A stretch of 28,377 bases of DNA from a virus. Taxonomy: Duplodnaviria; Heunggongvirae; Uroviricota; Caudoviricetes. The stretch lies in the IMG/VR virus record IMGVR_UViG_2675903575_000014, positions 1 through 28,377 of that record; one strand, given 5' to 3'. This document shows positions 3,859 through 13,752 of the stretch, piece after piece. The translations under genes and the position numbers were made by a program. Below the pieces are notes generated by a model that saw only the letters and a list, made by a program, of their open reading frames with translations, was not told the DNA's origin and did no database searches. Each line of letters opens with the position of its first letter. Position 1 is the stretch's first letter.

Positions 3859-4068
3859 TTACGGTGCTGTTTTAAGTCCTGCCGGGATTTCGTTATTGTC
3901 CATGCGAATAACTTTATCAACCGGATAACAGTTGCCGGGAATTTTCTGTTCCGCTGCGGCAGCCATGCATTCTTTCATTGAGTCATGTATACCAATAACA
4001 AGATCGACTGGCTCGCCTGTATTAAGAAAAACCGTCAGAACGAGTGCAAATACTGTATTCATTGTCAT
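3859..4068 (-). CDS. Small hypothetical protein with hydrophobic N-terminus (69 aa, MTMNTVFALVLTVFLNTGE...)
   Basis: Its ATG overlaps the stop of the upstream gene in an ATGA arrangement (translational coupling); signal-peptide-like N-terminus. Confidence 0.45.
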   Translation of the reverse strand: MTMNTVFALVLTVFLNTGEPVDLVIGIHDSMKECMAAAAEQKIPGNCYPVDKVIRMDNNEIPAGLKTAP

Positions 4069-4247
4069 CGTCCTTTTTGCATCAGGCGTAAACGGGCCAG
4101 CATTGAAACAATGCATATTTGATTTAATAGCTCCCGTTCGTGTTTTCTCTTATTAATGGCATCTTCAGTAAATACAGGGTTACTGATTCTGACACCAATT
4201 TCAAAACAACCTTCAGACGTATTGACGTTTGGTAATAACGTTTCCAT
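4065..4247 (-). CDS. Small early-left protein (60 aa), possibly Kil-like host-division inhibitor
   Basis: GAGGA Shine-Dalgarno 7 nt upstream of the ATG at 4247. Size and position fit a kil-type gene; sequence similarity to lambda Kil is only a vague impression. Confidence 0.35.
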   Translation of the reverse strand: METLLPNVNTSEGCFEIGVRISNPVFTEDAINKRKHERELLNQICIVSMLARLRLMQKGR

Positions 4248-4430
4248 TATCGCATCCTCAACAATGAATTTTGTGATGCGGTGCCTGGTGCCTCCAGGTG
4301 ACGTTAACCAGTTAATAATTAACGCCGGATACAGAGAACCCACCCATAAGAACCAATACGGAAGTCAACTGGCCTTTTTAACTGTTCCGCGTGCGCTGAG
4401 CCGCATTCACCGCATCACAAAATTCACTTT

Positions 4431-4476
4431 AAAAAGGGCGGGTATCACAAGGGAAAACAAAAAACGGATACCCGCC
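4431..4476 (-). terminator. Putative intrinsic terminator / attenuator on the leftward transcript
   Basis: 10-bp perfect stem GGCGGGTATC / GATACCCGCC with a 20-nt loop, followed on the minus strand by a T-run (plus-strand AAAAAG at 4431-4436). Confidence 0.4.
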
Positions 4477-4719
4477 AAAAGGTAATCAACATGGGTTGTT
4501 GCAGCGGGGTTGTCACTTAAGCGTATGGTCAACCTGACAACCCGGTGCCACTAATGGGGTAAGGATAACCCCGCCATACTTACCGCCGCGCCATTTCGCG
4601 GATTGCCACAACCGGAAGTGCACGGTCGACGAAAATTTAACGACAGGCTATCTATGAACCAGCTACCTCGCCGTACGCTTTCGCGTTGTGTGCCTGCTTT
4701 TAACCACGTCAGGCGAGGT

Positions 4720-4758
4720 GGTTCCTGTTATTCCCCAACAACAAGAAATTTGTATAAT
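4720..4758 (+). promoter_or_regulatory. Putative promoter with extended -10 (TGTATAAT at 4751-4758)
   Basis: A TGnTATAAT element sits about 35 nt upstream of the GTG at 4793, with a purine-rich SD-like GAGAAGAG between them. Confidence 0.4.
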
Positions 4759-4792
4759 CCGGATATCCCCAACAACGAGAAGAGTACTCAAC

Positions 4793-5248
4793 GTGATAGC
4801 AGAACTGTCAGCGGCTATGGCTGCGATAAAGGAGACAGCTGGTCTCGCTAAGGTTATTAATGACGCAAAAACGGATGCAGAAGTTAAAGCCGCAACTATT
4901 GAACTTCAGAACAAACTAATCACGCTTCAGGCGGAATGCTTCTCTCTTTGCGATGCGATCCGCTTTCGTGATGAAGAGATAATGCATCTCAAAGCAAAAA
5001 TTGCAGAGACAGAAGATTTTCAGCGACAGGCGGAAGGTTACAAGCTTAACAAGCTTGATTCTGGAACCCTTGTATATTCCAAGAAGCAATTTATAGGCGA
5101 TACTGAGATAACTGTGTATCTTTGCCCACAATGTTTTGGAAAAAAGGTAATATCTGTACTTCAGCCAATGGAAATAATGCGCTTTGATGCTCATTTTCGT
5201 ACTTTTTGCCCCGCTTGCAATAATAAGTTCTGGATGAACTCAAGATAA
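4793..5248 (+). CDS. Hypothetical coiled-coil protein with C-terminal C4 zinc ribbon (about 151 aa from GTG 4793; alternative ATG at 4817)
   Basis: Plus-strand ORF inside the otherwise minus-strand early-left operon. N-terminal half is heptad-like and charged (AEVKAATIELQNKLITLQAE...); C-terminus has CPQC-x23-CPAC. The upstream 4688-4792 part of the track ORF is probably non-coding leader. Confidence 0.55.
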   Translation: MIAELSAAMAAIKETAGLAKVINDAKTDAEVKAATIELQNKLITLQAECFSLCDAIRFRDEEIMHLKAKIAETEDFQRQAEGYKLNKLDSGTLVYSKKQFIGDTEITVYLCPQCFGKKVISVLQPMEIMRFDAHFRTFCPACNNKFWMNSR

Positions 5249-5383
5249 TTAACCGTTTAAATAAGTTGGGACTATCCAGATTTTTAAAGAACGTACCGGA
5301 TGCTCACCCGTGTCCGGCGCACGCACTCCACCTGACCCGTGAAGAACTCCTTAATTACCAACCTTAGCTTCGTTGGTTAGCTA

Positions 5384-5602
5384 TTAACGCGGGTATGAAA
5401 TCATTCTGGCAATGCTTAATGCCGCTGCTTTTTCCAGCCTGGTGATATCCTGCTCCAGAGCGGACAGATTTTCAGCCTGCTTAGCCCTGGCTTCATTGGC
5501 CCATTTCAGATCCTGCGCTGCATTAATTTTCTGGCGCATCCACTCATAAAGTTCATCATCGGTATAGTCTGGCGCGATGATGACGGGTTCTCGTTTCTGC
5601 AT
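5384..5602 (-). CDS. Hypothetical small protein (72 aa)
   Basis: GAGGA SD 6 nt upstream of the ATG at 5602; charged helical composition; sits in the early-left operon. Confidence 0.5.
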   Translation of the reverse strand: MQKREPVIIAPDYTDDELYEWMRQKINAAQDLKWANEARAKQAENLSALEQDITRLEKAAALSIARMISYPR

Positions 5603-5631
5603 ACTGATTCCTCGCGGTGCTGCTTCGCTTA

Positions 5632-5760
5632 TCAGCCGTTAGATTTTGCCGAGCTGGAAAGCGCCTGTTTAAACTCACTGAAGCTGAGAGCTTCTTCGCC
5701 TTCGGCAAGGCCTTCGAAGTATTCTTCGTAAGCCTTTTCCATGATTGTGTCGAAATCCAT
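5632..5760 (-). CDS. Small acidic protein (42 aa; MDFDTIMEKAYEEYFEGLAEGEEALSFSEFKQ...)
   Basis: Found by manual translation (too short for the ORF track). Start is 2 nt after the stop of the upstream gene, with a GGTGAG SD-like sequence; 11 of 42 residues are acidic. Confidence 0.35.
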   Translation of the reverse strand: MDFDTIMEKAYEEYFEGLAEGEEALSFSEFKQALSSSAKSNG

Positions 5761-5761
5761 A

Positions 5762-5995
5762 TCACTCACCTGAGTTTCTTTCCAGCCAGCGACGCGCGCC
5801 AGATTCGGTTTTAAACGTTTTGCTTTTGGTATACGTCATCGCAGTGAACGTGCCGTCCTGGTTGGGGAACACGCCACATACCAGAGATTCGCTGTTGCCA
5901 AGATCGATAGTATCCATGCTGACCTCATTTCCCCTTAACGCCGGGGTGGCGGAACAAAAACCTGCTGCATAGTTAAAGTTGAACCCTGCCGTCAT
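5762..5995 (-). CDS. Hypothetical small protein (77 aa; alternative start at internal Met, plus coordinate 5917)
   Basis: First ORF downstream of the putative PL; GAGG SD before the ATG at 5995. Confidence 0.45.
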   Translation of the reverse strand: MTAGFNFNYAAGFCSATPALRGNEVSMDTIDLGNSESLVCGVFPNQDGTFTAMTYTKSKTFKTESGARRWLERNSGE

Positions 5996-6095
5996 GTTCT
6001 TACGCCTCGGGCTGGCTACTTAACCCCTGACCACTGCCTGGTAACTCGAAGTATTGCCCTGCGTTCTGTGGGGCGGGGTGAGGTGGTATACCATA

Positions 6096-6124
6096 AAACT
6101 AAATCTATTTAGTTTTATAGTCAA
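6096..6124 (-). promoter_or_regulatory. Putative PL promoter with overlapping operator (CTAAATCTATTTAG at 6099-6112)
   Basis: Minus-strand -35 TTGACT (plus 6119-6124), 17-bp spacer, -10 TAGTTT; the 14-bp palindrome CTAA-N6-TTAG overlaps the spacer and -10. Confidence 0.4.
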
Positions 6125-6142
6125 GTGTGATCTAGATATATT

Positions 6143-6167
6143 TAAAAAAGGTCGACAAAGCCGACCT
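6143..6167 (-). terminator. Putative intrinsic terminator downstream of the repressor gene
   Basis: Stem AGGTCG / CGACCT with a 7-nt loop, followed on the minus strand by a T6 run. Confidence 0.45.
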
Positions 6168-6190
6168 CTGATTGAAAAACAAAGTGGAAG

Positions 6191-6841
6191 CTATAGGCTG
6201 AACTGCACACCTTTTGCTACAGCAACAATTTTACATTCAGGTGTCAGTAAGGACGATTGATAGCGAGGATTGAGGGGGCTTAAATACACGAGTTTTCCGT
6301 CGATGACTAATTTTTTTATAGTCATAGATGGTTCGTTTGTAAGCGGATCTGGGACTATTACAGCGACGATACTACCATTTTTATATTTTTCTCTAGGCCT
6401 CATGATCACTGTGGCACCAACCGGAATGCTTGGCGACCCTGATGGGTTGTGCATAGTGTCATCAGGCATTGAAACGGCAAAATCCCCCTCCTTGACGTCA
6501 AAGAATGTGGTGATTCTGTCGGCATTTCCCATAGTTTTCTCTCCTTCTAAAATTAGGAAAGAAATTGCTTCCCCCCATGAAAGATAGGGGATTTGGGTGC
6601 CTGAATTGTTCTGCACAAGGGTAGGTTCAGTAGACGATACTCCATATAGGAGATAGGACTCAGTAGTTCCTAGTGCTTGGGCTAATTTACTAAGAGCTTT
6701 GCTACCGGGTTCGTTTAGGTCTTTCTCCCAGTACCCTATAGTTACCCCTGTTACGCCAGAAAGCTTGCCCAGTTCGACTTGGGTCAGTCCCTTGTCTTTT
6801 CTGAGTCTCTTAAGCCTAATGCCAAGGCTTTCCATCATCAT
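6191..6841 (-). CDS. cI: CI-type prophage repressor (HTH_XRE N-terminal domain plus LexA/S24-like autoprotease C-terminal domain)
   Basis: N-terminal LKRLRKDKGLTQVELGKLSGVTGVTIGYWE is a classic XRE helix-turn-helix. The C-terminal domain has a Ser in the AVSMPDDTM context and a Lys in TIKKLV, consistent with the S24 catalytic dyad. Three tandem ATGs; the third (6835) has the best SD spacing. Divergent from cro. Confidence 0.85.
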   Translation of the reverse strand: MMMESLGIRLKRLRKDKGLTQVELGKLSGVTGVTIGYWEKDLNEPGSKALSKLAQALGTTESYLLYGVSSTEPTLVQNNSGTQIPYLSWGEAISFLILEGEKTMGNADRITTFFDVKEGDFAVSMPDDTMHNPSGSPSIPVGATVIMRPREKYKNGSIVAVIVPDPLTNEPSMTIKKLVIDGKLVYLSPLNPRYQSSLLTPECKIVAVAKGVQFSL

Positions 6842-6865: not shown

Positions 6866-6918
6866 TTTTAGATTGCATTGACCTAAAAAAAATTATCCTT
6901 TAATCTAAAAATACTTAG
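6866..6918 (+). promoter_or_regulatory. PR promoter and OR operator region
   Basis: -35 TTGACC (6878-6883), 17-bp spacer, -10 TAATCT (6901-6906); a 14-bp palindrome CTAAAAATACTTAG (6905-6918) with the same CTAA-N6-TTAG architecture as the OL site; GGAGGG SD before the cro ATG. Confidence 0.5.
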
Positions 6919-6933: not shown

Positions 6934-7161
6934 ATGCGAGTTGATGAACTTGTCCAGTTTTTTGGCTCTGTTCAGAGAGTTGCCGATTTTTATGGGATAA
7001 CCCGTGAAGCTATATACATGTGGCGCAAACGTCCTGGTGAAATAGTTCCCAAGGGGAGGGCCGCGGAAGCTGCCGCATACTCCAAGGGAAAATTATCTTT
7101 GAACCCAGAACTTTACAAAAAGAAGGATAACACCTTGAACGAAGGAAAGAATGATTCATGA
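6934..7161 (+). CDS. cro: Cro-like transcriptional regulator (YdaS/Cro family, 75 aa)
   Basis: Small HTH protein divergently transcribed from the repressor gene; motif FYGITREAIYMWRK; its stop overlaps the next gene start (ATGA). Confidence 0.75.
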   Translation: MRVDELVQFFGSVQRVADFYGITREAIYMWRKRPGEIVPKGRAAEAAAYSKGKLSLNPELYKKKDNTLNEGKNDS

Positions 7162-7583
7162 AAATCAAGCATGAACACATCCGCATGGCGATGAATGCCT
7201 GGGCGCGTCCTGATGGCGAAAAAGTTCCAGCAGCTGGAATAACCCAGGCTTATTTTGAGTTGGGTATGACGTTTCCTGAACTGTATGACGATAGCCATCC
7301 GGAAGCCCTGGCTCGCAATACCCAGAAAATTTTCCGCTGGGTAGAGAAAGACACCCCTGATGCAGTTGAAAAAATTCAGACGTTGTTACCAGCGATCGAA
7401 AAGGCAATGCCACCTTTGCTGGTGGCCAGAATGCGCAGCCACAGTTCAGCTTATTTTCGGGAGCTGGTGGAGACGCGGGAGCGACTGGTGAGAGACGCTG
7501 ATGATTTTGTCGCAGTGGCAATCGCCGGTTTCAATCAGATGAACCGTGGTGGCCCGGCAGGAAATGCTGTGGCAGTACATTGA
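7158..7583 (+). CDS. YdaT-family protein (Rac-type CII functional analogue, 141 aa)
   Basis: Position immediately after cro and size match Rac ydaS-ydaT. I recall the MKIKHEHIRMAMN... N-terminus as YdaT-like, but this is from memory and unverified. Confidence 0.6.
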   Translation: MKIKHEHIRMAMNAWARPDGEKVPAAGITQAYFELGMTFPELYDDSHPEALARNTQKIFRWVEKDTPDAVEKIQTLLPAIEKAMPPLLVARMRSHSSAYFRELVETRERLVRDADDFVAVAIAGFNQMNRGGPAGNAVAVH

Positions 7584-10993: not shown

Positions 10994-12874
10994 TTATCGC
11001 CCAGCAGATTTAGCAAGAATAGTCTCGAGCATTTCTGGTACGTTGCCTTTAGCATTGATAGTTGCTGTTCGGTAAGCTAGTTGATTTTTTGAGAGATTGA
11101 TTCCTGTAAGTGCTTCAATTTCGTTGCAGGCCTTACCCCATTCTACCCAGTTTTCAGACAAAAAAGATTCAAGATGATCCGCAAATATAGCAATATCATT
11201 AGTAACTGTTGCAGCTGGAAAATCCTCTTCGGGCATACCAAAGTATCTAAGCAGACTTCGATTCTCCATTGCGTGATTATTCCGCTCGGCATCGATAGCT
11301 CCCTGCATTTTATTTTTCGCTTTGGCACGAGCTTCAAAACCCGCATCTGCATCGAAAAGCGCGAAAACAGGAACGCCAATTGTACTTAGAATCGCATGGG
11401 CAAGTGGGATTGATGTCTTTGAACCTACAGGAACAATAGAGATGCCAGCGGCTTCAAGCGAGCCGTGTGACTTCCTGTCGCCAATTCCATAAAACACCGA
11501 TAATTCTGTTGTCCCTTCTACCAGAAAAGCTCTTTGGGCAAAGAGAGCTATTGAAAGCTGATCAGCTACATTATGGCCAAGCCTTCTATCAACTACTTCG
11601 GCATTAACAATTCCTTTTAATTTATCTTTGACATCTTCGATGGTTGCAAAGTGAACAGAAACAACGGGGTTTGCATCAGATGTTCGTGTCAATCGTCTAA
11701 TCTGGTTGAAATGGCGAGCTTCAAGAAAGTATGGGCTGTGAGTCGCATATGTTATCTGTATGCGCTTATCCGCATCTTCGGCGAGTTCTCTGAGTACTTT
11801 TGCAAATGCTTGTGCTTGGATCGGATGCTGAAATAATTCTGGTTCTTCGATCGCAAGGCAAATAACACCTTCGGTAGAGGCTGCACCAGACTGAGCTAAT
11901 AATTGGAGAGCAGAGATCAGTATCGTGCGTTGAAAGCCGTGCCCTTGCCTTTCGACTGCTGTTTCGGTTGTGCCATCAAGCACAGAAACTTCGAATGTGG
12001 TCTTGGGGGCCTTCAGTTCGATATTTGCAGGGGTAACTGTAACAGCACGACCGGGGGAGTAAGTCGTAACTACGGCGTTCAACTGCGCCGTCATATCCGC
12101 AAGTTGGGTTTCGAATTTTTCTTTGTAGACTTTCTGCTGCTGGACTCGGGATTCTTCAACAATCTTTGCAATTTCCTCATCTGCGGCGGTGCGATCAATC
12201 GAACGTTCAAGAATTCGACCAATAATACTCGCCTTGCCATCGAGAGACTCTTCACTGGCACGAAGATCTGCTGTTACCAAAACGTAATCAAAGAGACCGC
12301 TCATCTTGCCGCCACTGTTGAAACCGAAAAAGTTGGTTTGTAGGGATTCAAGTGCCTCATGTAGTAATTCTGTATGTGATGCTTCCCATGCAGTCATTGC
12401 TTCTTCGACAGCAAGCCCGGTCTTGGCAACGGGAAGATTGAATTCAGGATGTGCTTCTCGAAGAGCGTTGTACAAATCCTTCTTCGCTGTTGCTCCATTA
12501 GCAGCTTTAATATCGTTAAAATAAGGGAAACTTTTTGCGTTGGCAGAAAGCCTTTCTGAACCGTCGGGCGCGCGTAGCCTCCAGGCAGTGAATGTTGCTG
12601 CTCCCTGCGGAGCGTATTTGCCAAGTGCTTCACGATCTCTCTCAGTGAGGTTTGAGAAGGTAACCTGTACCTCAATATCTTTATCAATAGTTCCAAATGA
12701 GCAATCTTTTTCATTTAACATCCCGACCTTACCGTTGAAGAACCAATCAAGTGCTCGGAGAACAGTAGATTTACCTGCCCCATTCGGGCCAATGAACGTT
12801 GTAACGGAATCGAAGGGAATATTTATATCTGTCAAAGTACGAAAGTTTTTTATCCTAACGGAATGAATTTTCAT
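10994..12874 (-). CDS. OLD-family ATP-dependent nuclease (N-terminal ABC-type ATPase plus C-terminal Toprim; 626 aa); class 1 OLD or fused PARIS AriA-AriB-like
   Basis: Walker A GPNGAGKST (residues 30-38); Walker B-like VICLAIEEPELFQHP; H-loop-like YATHSPYF; C-terminal Toprim-like FLVEGTTE, VPVGSKTS and FALFDADAG. No adjacent UvrD-like helicase gene. AT-rich relative to flanking phage genes. Confidence 0.8.
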   Translation of the reverse strand: MKIHSVRIKNFRTLTDINIPFDSVTTFIGPNGAGKSTVLRALDWFFNGKVGMLNEKDCSFGTIDKDIEVQVTFSNLTERDREALGKYAPQGAATFTAWRLRAPDGSERLSANAKSFPYFNDIKAANGATAKKDLYNALREAHPEFNLPVAKTGLAVEEAMTAWEASHTELLHEALESLQTNFFGFNSGGKMSGLFDYVLVTADLRASEESLDGKASIIGRILERSIDRTAADEEIAKIVEESRVQQQKVYKEKFETQLADMTAQLNAVVTTYSPGRAVTVTPANIELKAPKTTFEVSVLDGTTETAVERQGHGFQRTILISALQLLAQSGAASTEGVICLAIEEPELFQHPIQAQAFAKVLRELAEDADKRIQITYATHSPYFLEARHFNQIRRLTRTSDANPVVSVHFATIEDVKDKLKGIVNAEVVDRRLGHNVADQLSIALFAQRAFLVEGTTELSVFYGIGDRKSHGSLEAAGISIVPVGSKTSIPLAHAILSTIGVPVFALFDADAGFEARAKAKNKMQGAIDAERNNHAMENRSLLRYFGMPEEDFPAATVTNDIAIFADHLESFLSENWVEWGKACNEIEALTGINLSKNQLAYRTATINAKGNVPEMLETILAKSAGR

Positions 12875-13385: not shown

Positions 13386-13469
13386 TTTTATATTGGCGAG
13401 GTGACGTGAGTTAAGTAGAATTGCTGCGGGTGCTTGAGGCTATCTGTCTCAGGCATGAACACCAAAGGC

Positions 13470-13560
13470 AGATAGAGAAAAGCCCCAGTTAACATTACGC
13501 GTCCTGCAAGACGCTTAACATTAATCTGAGGCTCAATCTATGAACGGCAAATCTAGGTTA
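13470..13560 (-). ncRNA. Predicted Sok-like antisense RNA of the hok locus (position approximate)
   Basis: Inferred from hok/sok family architecture. The leader (gcttgaggctatctgtctcagg ... ggcagatagagaaaagcccc) resembles, from my memory of R1, the hok mRNA 5' region. No explicit promoter was mapped. Confidence 0.25.
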
Positions 13561-13596
13561 GCCTCTTACGTGCCGAAAGGCAAGGAGAAGCAGGCT

Positions 13597-13752
13597 ATGA
13601 AGCAGCAAAAGGCGATGTTAATCGCCCTGATCGTCATCTGTTTAACCGTCATTGTGACGGCACTGGTAACGAGGAAAGACCTCTGCGAGGTACGAATCCG
13701 AACCGGCCAGACGGAGGTCGCTGTCTTCACAGCTTACGAACCTGAGGAGTAA
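13597..13752 (+). CDS. hok: Hok/Gef-family type I toxin (51 aa; MKQQKAMLIALIVICLTVIVTALVTRKDLCEVRIRTGQTEVAVFTAYEPEE)
   Basis: Single transmembrane helix followed by the conserved Cys-containing periplasmic tail typical of Hok/Gef; I recall this as matching E. coli HokD/RelF, unverified. An in-frame upstream ATG at 13540 gives a 70-aa mok-like extension. Confidence 0.85.
   Translation: MKQQKAMLIALIVICLTVIVTALVTRKDLCEVRIRTGQTEVAVFTAYEPEE

Follow-up and report, generated by a model that had tools for sequence, protein, structure and literature searches.

Which genes does this tailed virus (class Caudoviricetes) place first behind its immunity repressor, and what could the smallest and most acidic of their products do for it? 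The question is raised by three small open reading frames (ORFs) lying in series on the minus strand of the window, by which we mean the whole stretch of DNA analyzed here, i.e., the 28,377 nt of IMG/VR record IMGVR_UViG_2675903575_000014. An initial annotation had described these ORFs as a near-contiguous cluster of early-left genes and had proposed that the 42-aa acidic protein encoded by one of them is an anti-restriction DNA mimic or a host-takeover factor, of a kind that an adjacent OLD/PARIS-type nuclease might sense.

That the region comprises the orthologues of ydfA, ydfB, and ydfC, i.e., the promoter-proximal cistrons of a dicBF-type early-left operon in a Qin/Rac-like lambdoid prophage, is near certain. 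All three genes are on the minus strand: ydfA (positions 5762-5917; 51 aa; DUF1391/YdaF family) is the first cistron past a putative PL-type promoter, ydfB (5632-5760; 42 aa) encodes an acidic mini-protein of phrog_2061 with two predicted helices and begins 1 nt after the ydfA stop, and ydfC (5384-5602; 72 aa) is the third of the small cistrons. In tblastn comparisons with the K-12 locus, the products are 94% (YdfA), 100% (YdfB), and 97% (YdfC) identical to the proteins of the Qin prophage, and profile searches matched the three genes to phrog_751 (2.9e-36), phrog_2061 (1.3e-27), and phrog_1744 (1.9e-39), respectively. Homologues of all three proteins are contained in deposited phage genomes. 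A megablast search with positions 5300-6200 matched 4396 of 5426 complete E. coli genomes, in which the corresponding features are annotated as ydfC, ydfB, and ydfA/DUF1391; at least 80% of the query is covered in 1394 of the matching genomes, and this number is used here as the lower bound on the frequency of the block (at least 1394/5426). K-12 Qin and strain 190693 have the same gene order, with the 1-nt gap between ydfA and ydfB and with dicB downstream. The ORFs are indeed in series and almost contiguous, just downstream of the repressor gene (6191-6841): the ydfA stop (5762-5764) and the ydfB ATG (5760) are 1 nt apart, 29 nt separate the ydfB stop (5632) from the ydfC ATG (5602), and a Shine-Dalgarno-like GAGG or GGTGAG lies 5-8 nt upstream of each start. 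The cluster is an ordinary, previously annotated gene set, and the identity of its genes was already known. The initial annotation had not recognized them as ydfA, ydfB, and ydfC, names that are carried in most E. coli genomes.

The start of the first gene had to be revised from position 5995, where the initial annotation had wrongly placed it, to 5917. The Pfam family DUF1391 (PF07151) matches only residues 28-75 of the 77-aa ORF (1.7e-27), with 95.3 bits against a gathering cut-off of 27.3 and with model positions 1-48 of 48 covered, which makes YdfA a member of the DUF1391/YdaF family. RefSeq annotates a 156-nt ydfA coding sequence, i.e., 51 aa, in identical or near-identical loci, and the similarity to K-12 upstream of ydfA ends at position 5955; from these three observations, we assign ydfA to 5762-5917. 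The AlphaFold2 (AF2) model of YdfA (pLDDT 78) contains three beta strands followed by a C-terminal helix, a predicted beta3-alpha layout that we compared with the AP2/ERF and integrase arm-binding DNA-binding fold. A role of YdfA as a head-decoration protein was considered and rejected, since the match to PDB sequences spans only 19 residues (E 0.017-0.2) and is too short. In several phage records (e.g., ON470580.1 and PV340562.1), "head-DNA stabilization protein D" is the label given to the YdfA/DUF1391 gene; it probably stems from the 19-residue chance match (E 0.017) and looks like a propagated misannotation.

The third gene product, YdfC, starts with 22 near-invariant residues, MQKREPVIIAPDYTDDELYEWM, which carry a conserved acidic-aromatic motif and are followed in the alignment by a variable long helix. 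Its homologues are confined to Escherichia and lambdoid phages, and a search of PDB sequences yielded no match. Neither YdfB nor YdfC has a match in Pfam, NCBIfam, or PADLOC, even at E<=10.

Read from its ATG at 5760, the ORF of ydfB encodes 42 aa (45 aa with a GTG farther upstream as the start); it is real, conserved, and strongly acidic, as proposed initially, with the correction that Asp and Glu account for 10 of its 42 residues (23.8%) and not for 26%. Among the other M-initiated ORFs of the window that are 40 aa or longer, none attains 26% acidic residues. The calculated net charges are -1 for YdfA, -7 for YdfB, which has a pI of 4.05, and -1 for YdfC. Comparison of codons gave dN/dS values of 0.15-0.54 in the frame of ydfB and of 0.5-3.6 in the other two frames, showing that ydfB is under purifying selection. 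Homologues down to about 70% identity are present in Salmonella, Citrobacter, and Cronobacter, and the alignments show that the family keeps a pattern of hydrophobic and acidic residues. Interruption of the ORF in close relatives, which had been named as evidence against the initial proposal, is not what is seen, the gene being intact and identical at the protein level to that of K-12. Given the PHROG family matches, the in-frame selection on ydfB, and the homologues in phage genomes, all three small ORFs are genuine genes. The AF2 model of YdfB is a helical hairpin (helices 3-16 and 27-40; pLDDT 84) for which no specific structural neighbor was found, and a literature search returned no report of a function of YdfB or of evidence on its translation.

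Directly upstream of the small ORFs lies the gene for a cI-like immunity repressor (6191-6841, minus strand; 216 aa), with HTH_3 and Peptidase_S24 domains recognized by Pfam. A putative PL-type promoter with operator-like palindromes (6096-6145, minus strand) can be read from the sequence: TTGACT (6124-6119) and TAGTTT (6101-6096) are separated by a 17-nt spacer, and the palindrome CTAAATAGATTTAG at 6099-6112 overlaps this candidate promoter. Related copies of the palindrome are found at 6132-6145 and, within the cI-cro interval, at 6905-6918; the palindrome search returned 9 matches, where 2.05 were expected. In the interval that runs from the repressor stop to the first small ORF, we also noted by eye a short hairpin that has a T-run. 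The PL-type promoter was not among the calls of a consensus promoter scanner, its -10 element fitting the consensus at only 3 of 6 positions. The designation of 6124-6096 as PL is plausible, and the repressor encoded at 6191-6841 is expected to control it. Beyond the divergent control region, Pfam identifies a P22-Cro-like gene and a gene of the YdaT family (7158-7583). All lambdoid loci with a YdfB homologue that we examined have a YdaT-family gene beyond the immunity region; this co-presence may reflect only shared phage lineage.

The initial assignment of the small genes to the early-left (PL) operon was right. DicA, the K-12 counterpart of the present repressor, represses dicBp 22-fold, and the K-12 operon yields a terminated ydfABC-dicF transcript of 1146 nt and a read-through transcript of 1608 nt (PMC10448788). 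An orthologue of the cell division inhibitor gene dicB (4065-4247, minus strand) is a downstream cistron of the ydfABC operon in the window; it matches NCBIfam NF049927 (1.3e-36, 124 bits against a cut-off of 100), and RefSeq annotates dicB in the identical block. By analogy with K-12, release of the PL-type promoter by the cI-like repressor would produce a single transcript through ydfA, ydfB, and ydfC, which would continue through the hairpin in the slot of DicF, dicB, a DUF1482 gene, and the gene for a RecE-like exonuclease.

The slot occupied in K-12 by the small RNA DicF contains a different sequence here. No DicF (Rfam RF00039) was detected in the window, either at the gathering threshold or at E<=1, whereas the K-12 control scored 76.7 bits. 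Instead, between conserved flanks (block 4330-4700), a sequence of about 50 nt ends in a hairpin, GGCGGGTATC...GATACCCGCC, followed by a U-run (4431-4476, minus strand; placed by alignment), with a fold energy of -18.5 kcal/mol (z -4.6). Possibly, the element is an alternative sRNA cassette whose seed is different. The sole Rfam match in the window is sok, the antisense RNA of the hok/sok type I toxin-antitoxin system (13428-13602, plus strand; 110 bits), which shares positions with the ORF at 13540-13752; the corresponding spot in a related prophage is annotated as hokD.

Comparison by blastn with K-12 and strain 190693 delimited a 591-bp insertion relative to K-12 (4702-5292, plus strand) that separates ydfC from the DicF slot, an arrangement found in 67 of the 5426 E. 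coli genomes. The insertion carries a convergent ORF (4793-5248, plus strand, called by PGAP), annotated as a hypothetical protein, which matches phrog_1244 (2.4e-51), is coiled-coil-like in its N-terminal part, and contains two CxxC pairs. It takes the place that in Rac-like prophages is held by the opposite-strand exclusion gene sieB. The present locus resembles the K-12 Qin dicBF operon in the order of ydfABC, in the 1-nt and 29-nt spacers, and in the position of the genes between the repressor and dicB, but differs from it in the repressor (cI-like HTH+S24 here, DicA in Qin), in the hairpin that stands in for DicF, and in the insertion with its convergent ORF. Qin is cryptic, whereas the present prophage has the look of a complete one, the window containing genes for an integrase, a RecE-like exonuclease, and a terminase as well as replication genes. 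The relationship to Rac is seen in YdaF, which belongs to the DUF1391 family together with YdfA; the early-left region of Rac (ydaF/ydaG-sieB-kilR) differs in having SieB and KilR downstream, where YdfC and DicB are encoded here.

Comparison across prophages shows that the three genes do not travel as a fixed unit. In Salmonella, the 1-nt junction between the YdfA and YdfB genes is kept and a gene for a 212-aa protein takes the place of ydfC, whereas in prophages of Citrobacter and Cronobacter, YdfB is encoded by the ORF that comes first behind the repressor, YdfA is missing, and SieB, KilR, Gam, and RecE genes follow; in Rac-like prophages of Citrobacter, the gene for the YdfB homologue adjoins the repressor and precedes sieB, kilR, ydaE, and recE. 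YdfC is absent beside YdfB in all non-Escherichia loci examined, and in some E. coli strains a gene for a zinc-binding protein replaces both ydfA and ydfB. Within E. coli, the ydfABC cassette is found behind at least four repressors (DicA, RacR, cI-S24, and another HTH repressor). Throughout the examined lambdoid loci, at most one ORF lies between the repressor gene and that of YdfB. Tracing phrog_35040, a 205-position profile with a YdfB-like N-terminal part, as a candidate fusion partner downstream of ydfB in Salmonella and Cronobacter led only to uncharacterized families. The variety of neighbors and repressors indicates that ydfA, ydfB, and ydfC are independent accessory modules rather than partners of one immunity system. 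They are interchangeable, stand outside the immunity switch, and are not toxic to the host.

The reach of the YdfB family extends beyond temperate phages. Against 1.84e9 representative proteins, the profile of lambdoid YdfB returned only 75 matches, among them proteins of 29-59 aa with the family core YExYFxSLxEGEEALSFxEFxxAL, and this profile, although built from lambdoid members only, finds the lytic-phage type at E 5e-4 to 9e-4. A tblastn search of phage genomes with the YdfB core gave 64 records, including those of lytic Molineuxvirinae. The homologues in the latter phages are SP6 gp2 (positions 998-1099 of SP6; phrog_2061 profile 8.3e-15), ACG-C91 gp54 (860-997 of ACG-C91), and an unannotated ORF of K1E (923-1060 of NC_007637.1, plus strand; phrog_2061 profile 1.5e-19). 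The K1E ORF, of 45 aa (31 aa from an internal Met), lies upstream of gene 1 and was missed by the reference annotation. In all three phages, the early region has this homologue as its first or second ORF, at a distance of 0.9-1.1 kb from the genome end, and an ocr-like gene and the gene for the phage RNA polymerase follow downstream. YdfB itself matches the phrog_2061 profile and the core motif Y..YF..L.EGEE.LSF.EF, and the link between the lambdoid and lytic groups is already implicit in PHROGs, where both belong to phrog_2061. The SP6-type proteins share with YdfB the core YExYFxSLxEGEExLSFxEFxxAL, the first-expressed position, and strong acidity, the net charge across the family being kept at -7 to -10 (-9 and -10 in the lytic-phage versions). 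They differ from it in size (31-45 aa) and in lacking the N-terminal MDFDT and C-terminal SSSAKSNG tails, and their phages differ in being lytic and first transcribed by the host RNA polymerase.

In K-12, ydfABC have been described as "small proteins of unknown function" in the promoter-proximal part of the dicBF operon (PMC5069750), and a 2024 preprint still states their functions as not known. A Plac-driven operon lacking dicF and dicB but retaining ydfABC was nontoxic, and the cells grew and looked like the wild type (PMC5069750). Expression of ydfABC without dicB conferred no resistance to lambda-vir (PMC6832061), which excludes one exclusion phenotype only. The sole phenotypes on record are weak effects of ASKA overexpression on H2O2 and HOCl tolerance (PMC8228696). 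Wild-type growth and the lack of lambda-vir resistance show that YdfA, YdfB, and YdfC are not toxic takeover or exclusion factors under those conditions. The host-takeover role proposed at the outset is therefore contradicted in its toxic sense by the K-12 work (PMC5069750), whereas an early role directed at the host or against its defenses has the support of gene position.

We favor a reading in which the ydfABC operon delivers such host-directed accessory proteins, and we put the probability of this explanation as a whole, the mechanism of YdfB included, at roughly 0.42. With respect to YdfB, we tentatively suggest, at somewhat less than even odds, that it neutralizes a nonessential host factor early in infection; this proposal builds on the retention of YdfB by strictly lytic phages, its first-expressed position, its conserved acidity, and its lack of toxicity. 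The acidic helical hairpin, probably as a dimer, would bind a host factor whose surface is basic or binds nucleic acid, a defense or DNA-handling protein being the most plausible candidate, and would act in the first minutes of phage expression, with the family members of SP6/K1E-like lytic phages serving those phages in the same way. YdfA and YdfC would probably be adaptor-type binders of targets other than that of YdfB. The argument drawn from early position is one of guilt by association.

Among the other explanations, the one that survives best, while still improbable, holds that at least one of the three proteins works for the phage itself, either by N-like read-through of the terminator in the DicF slot or by tuning the decision between lysis and lysogeny. 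In lambda, the position corresponding to ydfABC is that of N, and the present phage has no N gene; lambda cIII tunes the lysis-lysogeny decision via cII, for which the YdaT-type protein would be the counterpart here, and, as noted above, all of the lambdoid loci examined have a YdaT-family gene opposite the small genes, with the immunity region in between. The pair of K-12 transcripts, 1146 nt terminated and 1608 nt read-through (PMC10448788), would also suit a read-through function. However, strictly lytic SP6-like phages, which make no lysogeny decision, keep YdfB, so a role of this protein in lysogeny control is unlikely, and the cassette is freely combined with unrelated repressors. Moreover, RNA-binding antiterminators are basic, whereas the net charges of YdfA, YdfB, and YdfC (-1, -7, and -1) leave none of the three basic.

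Markedly less probable is the initial proposal that YdfB is an Ocr- or ArdA-like DNA mimic directed against type I restriction-modification or BREX systems and sensed by the OLD-family nuclease. Its appeal is understandable: the negative charge of YdfB is high and conserved, its acidic residues at 4, 8, 12, and 16 line up along the same side of helix 1 in our reading of the sequence and the model, and its gene is among the earliest in two phage lifestyles, much as T7 Ocr (gp0.3) and ArdA are acidic and encoded among the earliest phage genes. However, YdfB resembles neither Ocr nor ArdA, ArdB, or KlcA in sequence or fold, searches of PADLOC and Pfam gave no family for it even at E<=10, and, with 42 residues, it is far below the size of known DNA mimics, about a third of that of Ocr or ArdA; Ocr has 116 aa and ArdA about 166 aa, and both are dimers. 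Furthermore, SP6, K1E, and ACG-C91 possess an ocr-like gene besides the YdfB homologue, so that YdfB is not simply the Ocr of these phages. Anti-restriction genes gather in the leading regions of conjugative plasmids, and the plasmid matches to YdfB amount to five prophage-like segments, none of them in such a region. In general terms, the functional idea of the initial annotation is a reasonable hypothesis for YdfB; the specific DNA-mimic version of it is unsupported.

The partner envisaged for the acidic protein did not hold up either. The OLD-family gene (10994-12874, minus strand; PADLOC) encodes a stand-alone ATP-dependent nuclease of 626 aa with an ATPase-Toprim layout, the best PADLOC model for which is the P2-type Old (1.3e-55); similarity to AriA is restricted to the N-terminal ATPase part. 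Neither AriB nor any adjacent partner ORF on the same strand was found at this gene, which therefore encodes one P2-Old-like polypeptide and not a PARIS pair. Instead of being adjacent to the small ORFs, it lies 5 kb from them, with the immunity and replication modules in between. As cargo, the gene is rare, being present at full length in 5 of the 5426 complete E. coli genomes as against at least 1394 for the ydfABC block, and this lack of co-occurrence, together with the distance and the absence of AriB, leaves the link to the acidic protein unsupported.

Still less probable, by a little, is a degenerate single EF-hand-like helix-loop-helix with a divalent-metal-dependent function. When the YdfB profile was compared with PDB sequences, the top of the list consisted almost only of EF-hand proteins (calcineurin B, CHP1/p22, MICU2, and an Entamoeba calmodulin-like domain), EGEEALSFxEF aligning to DGDGKLSFEEF; a 350-aa EF-hand repeat protein was matched in the protein library at 8.4e-4, and the helix/10-residue loop/helix layout of the YdfB model is compatible with such a unit. 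Yet every PDB match lies above E 0.04, and there is no Pfam EF-hand match at E<=10. YdfB also departs from the 12-residue EF-hand loop: position 12 (Glu) and positions 3, 4, 5, 8, 9, and 10 fit, but position 1 is an invariant Leu instead of Asp and position 6 an invariant Glu instead of Gly.

Finally, the idea that the small ORFs, and the 42-aa one above all, arose by chance or are what is left of a decaying cryptic prophage, to which the location of the K-12 copies in a defective prophage, the frameshifted or partial state of some database members of the YdfB family, and the absence of ydfB from ATCC 8739 (PMC5069750) might lend themselves, is refuted by the conservation data and has a probability close to nil, considering the purifying selection on ydfB in its own frame only, the homologues in plaque-forming temperate and lytic phages, the strong PHROG matches, and the conserved Shine-Dalgarno motifs and 1-nt coupling.

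Returning to the host-directed reading of YdfB, a broader version of it would make phrog_2061 an unrecognized class of tiny acidic proteins that lambdoid and SP6/K1E-like phages produce first, against a host defense or DNA-handling factor other than that of Ocr. We consider this generalization rather unlikely, although ahead of the phage-internal role discussed above. The ydfABC genes are annotated in thousands of genomes, that of the best-studied bacterium included, and their recognition here adds little by itself. What the comparison does is to narrow the question about YdfB to that of a protein which is under selection, nontoxic, and common to the first-expressed genes of SP6-like phages that already have Ocr. 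If phrog_2061 did prove to be an anti-host class, most E. coli genomes would carry silent prophage copies of it.
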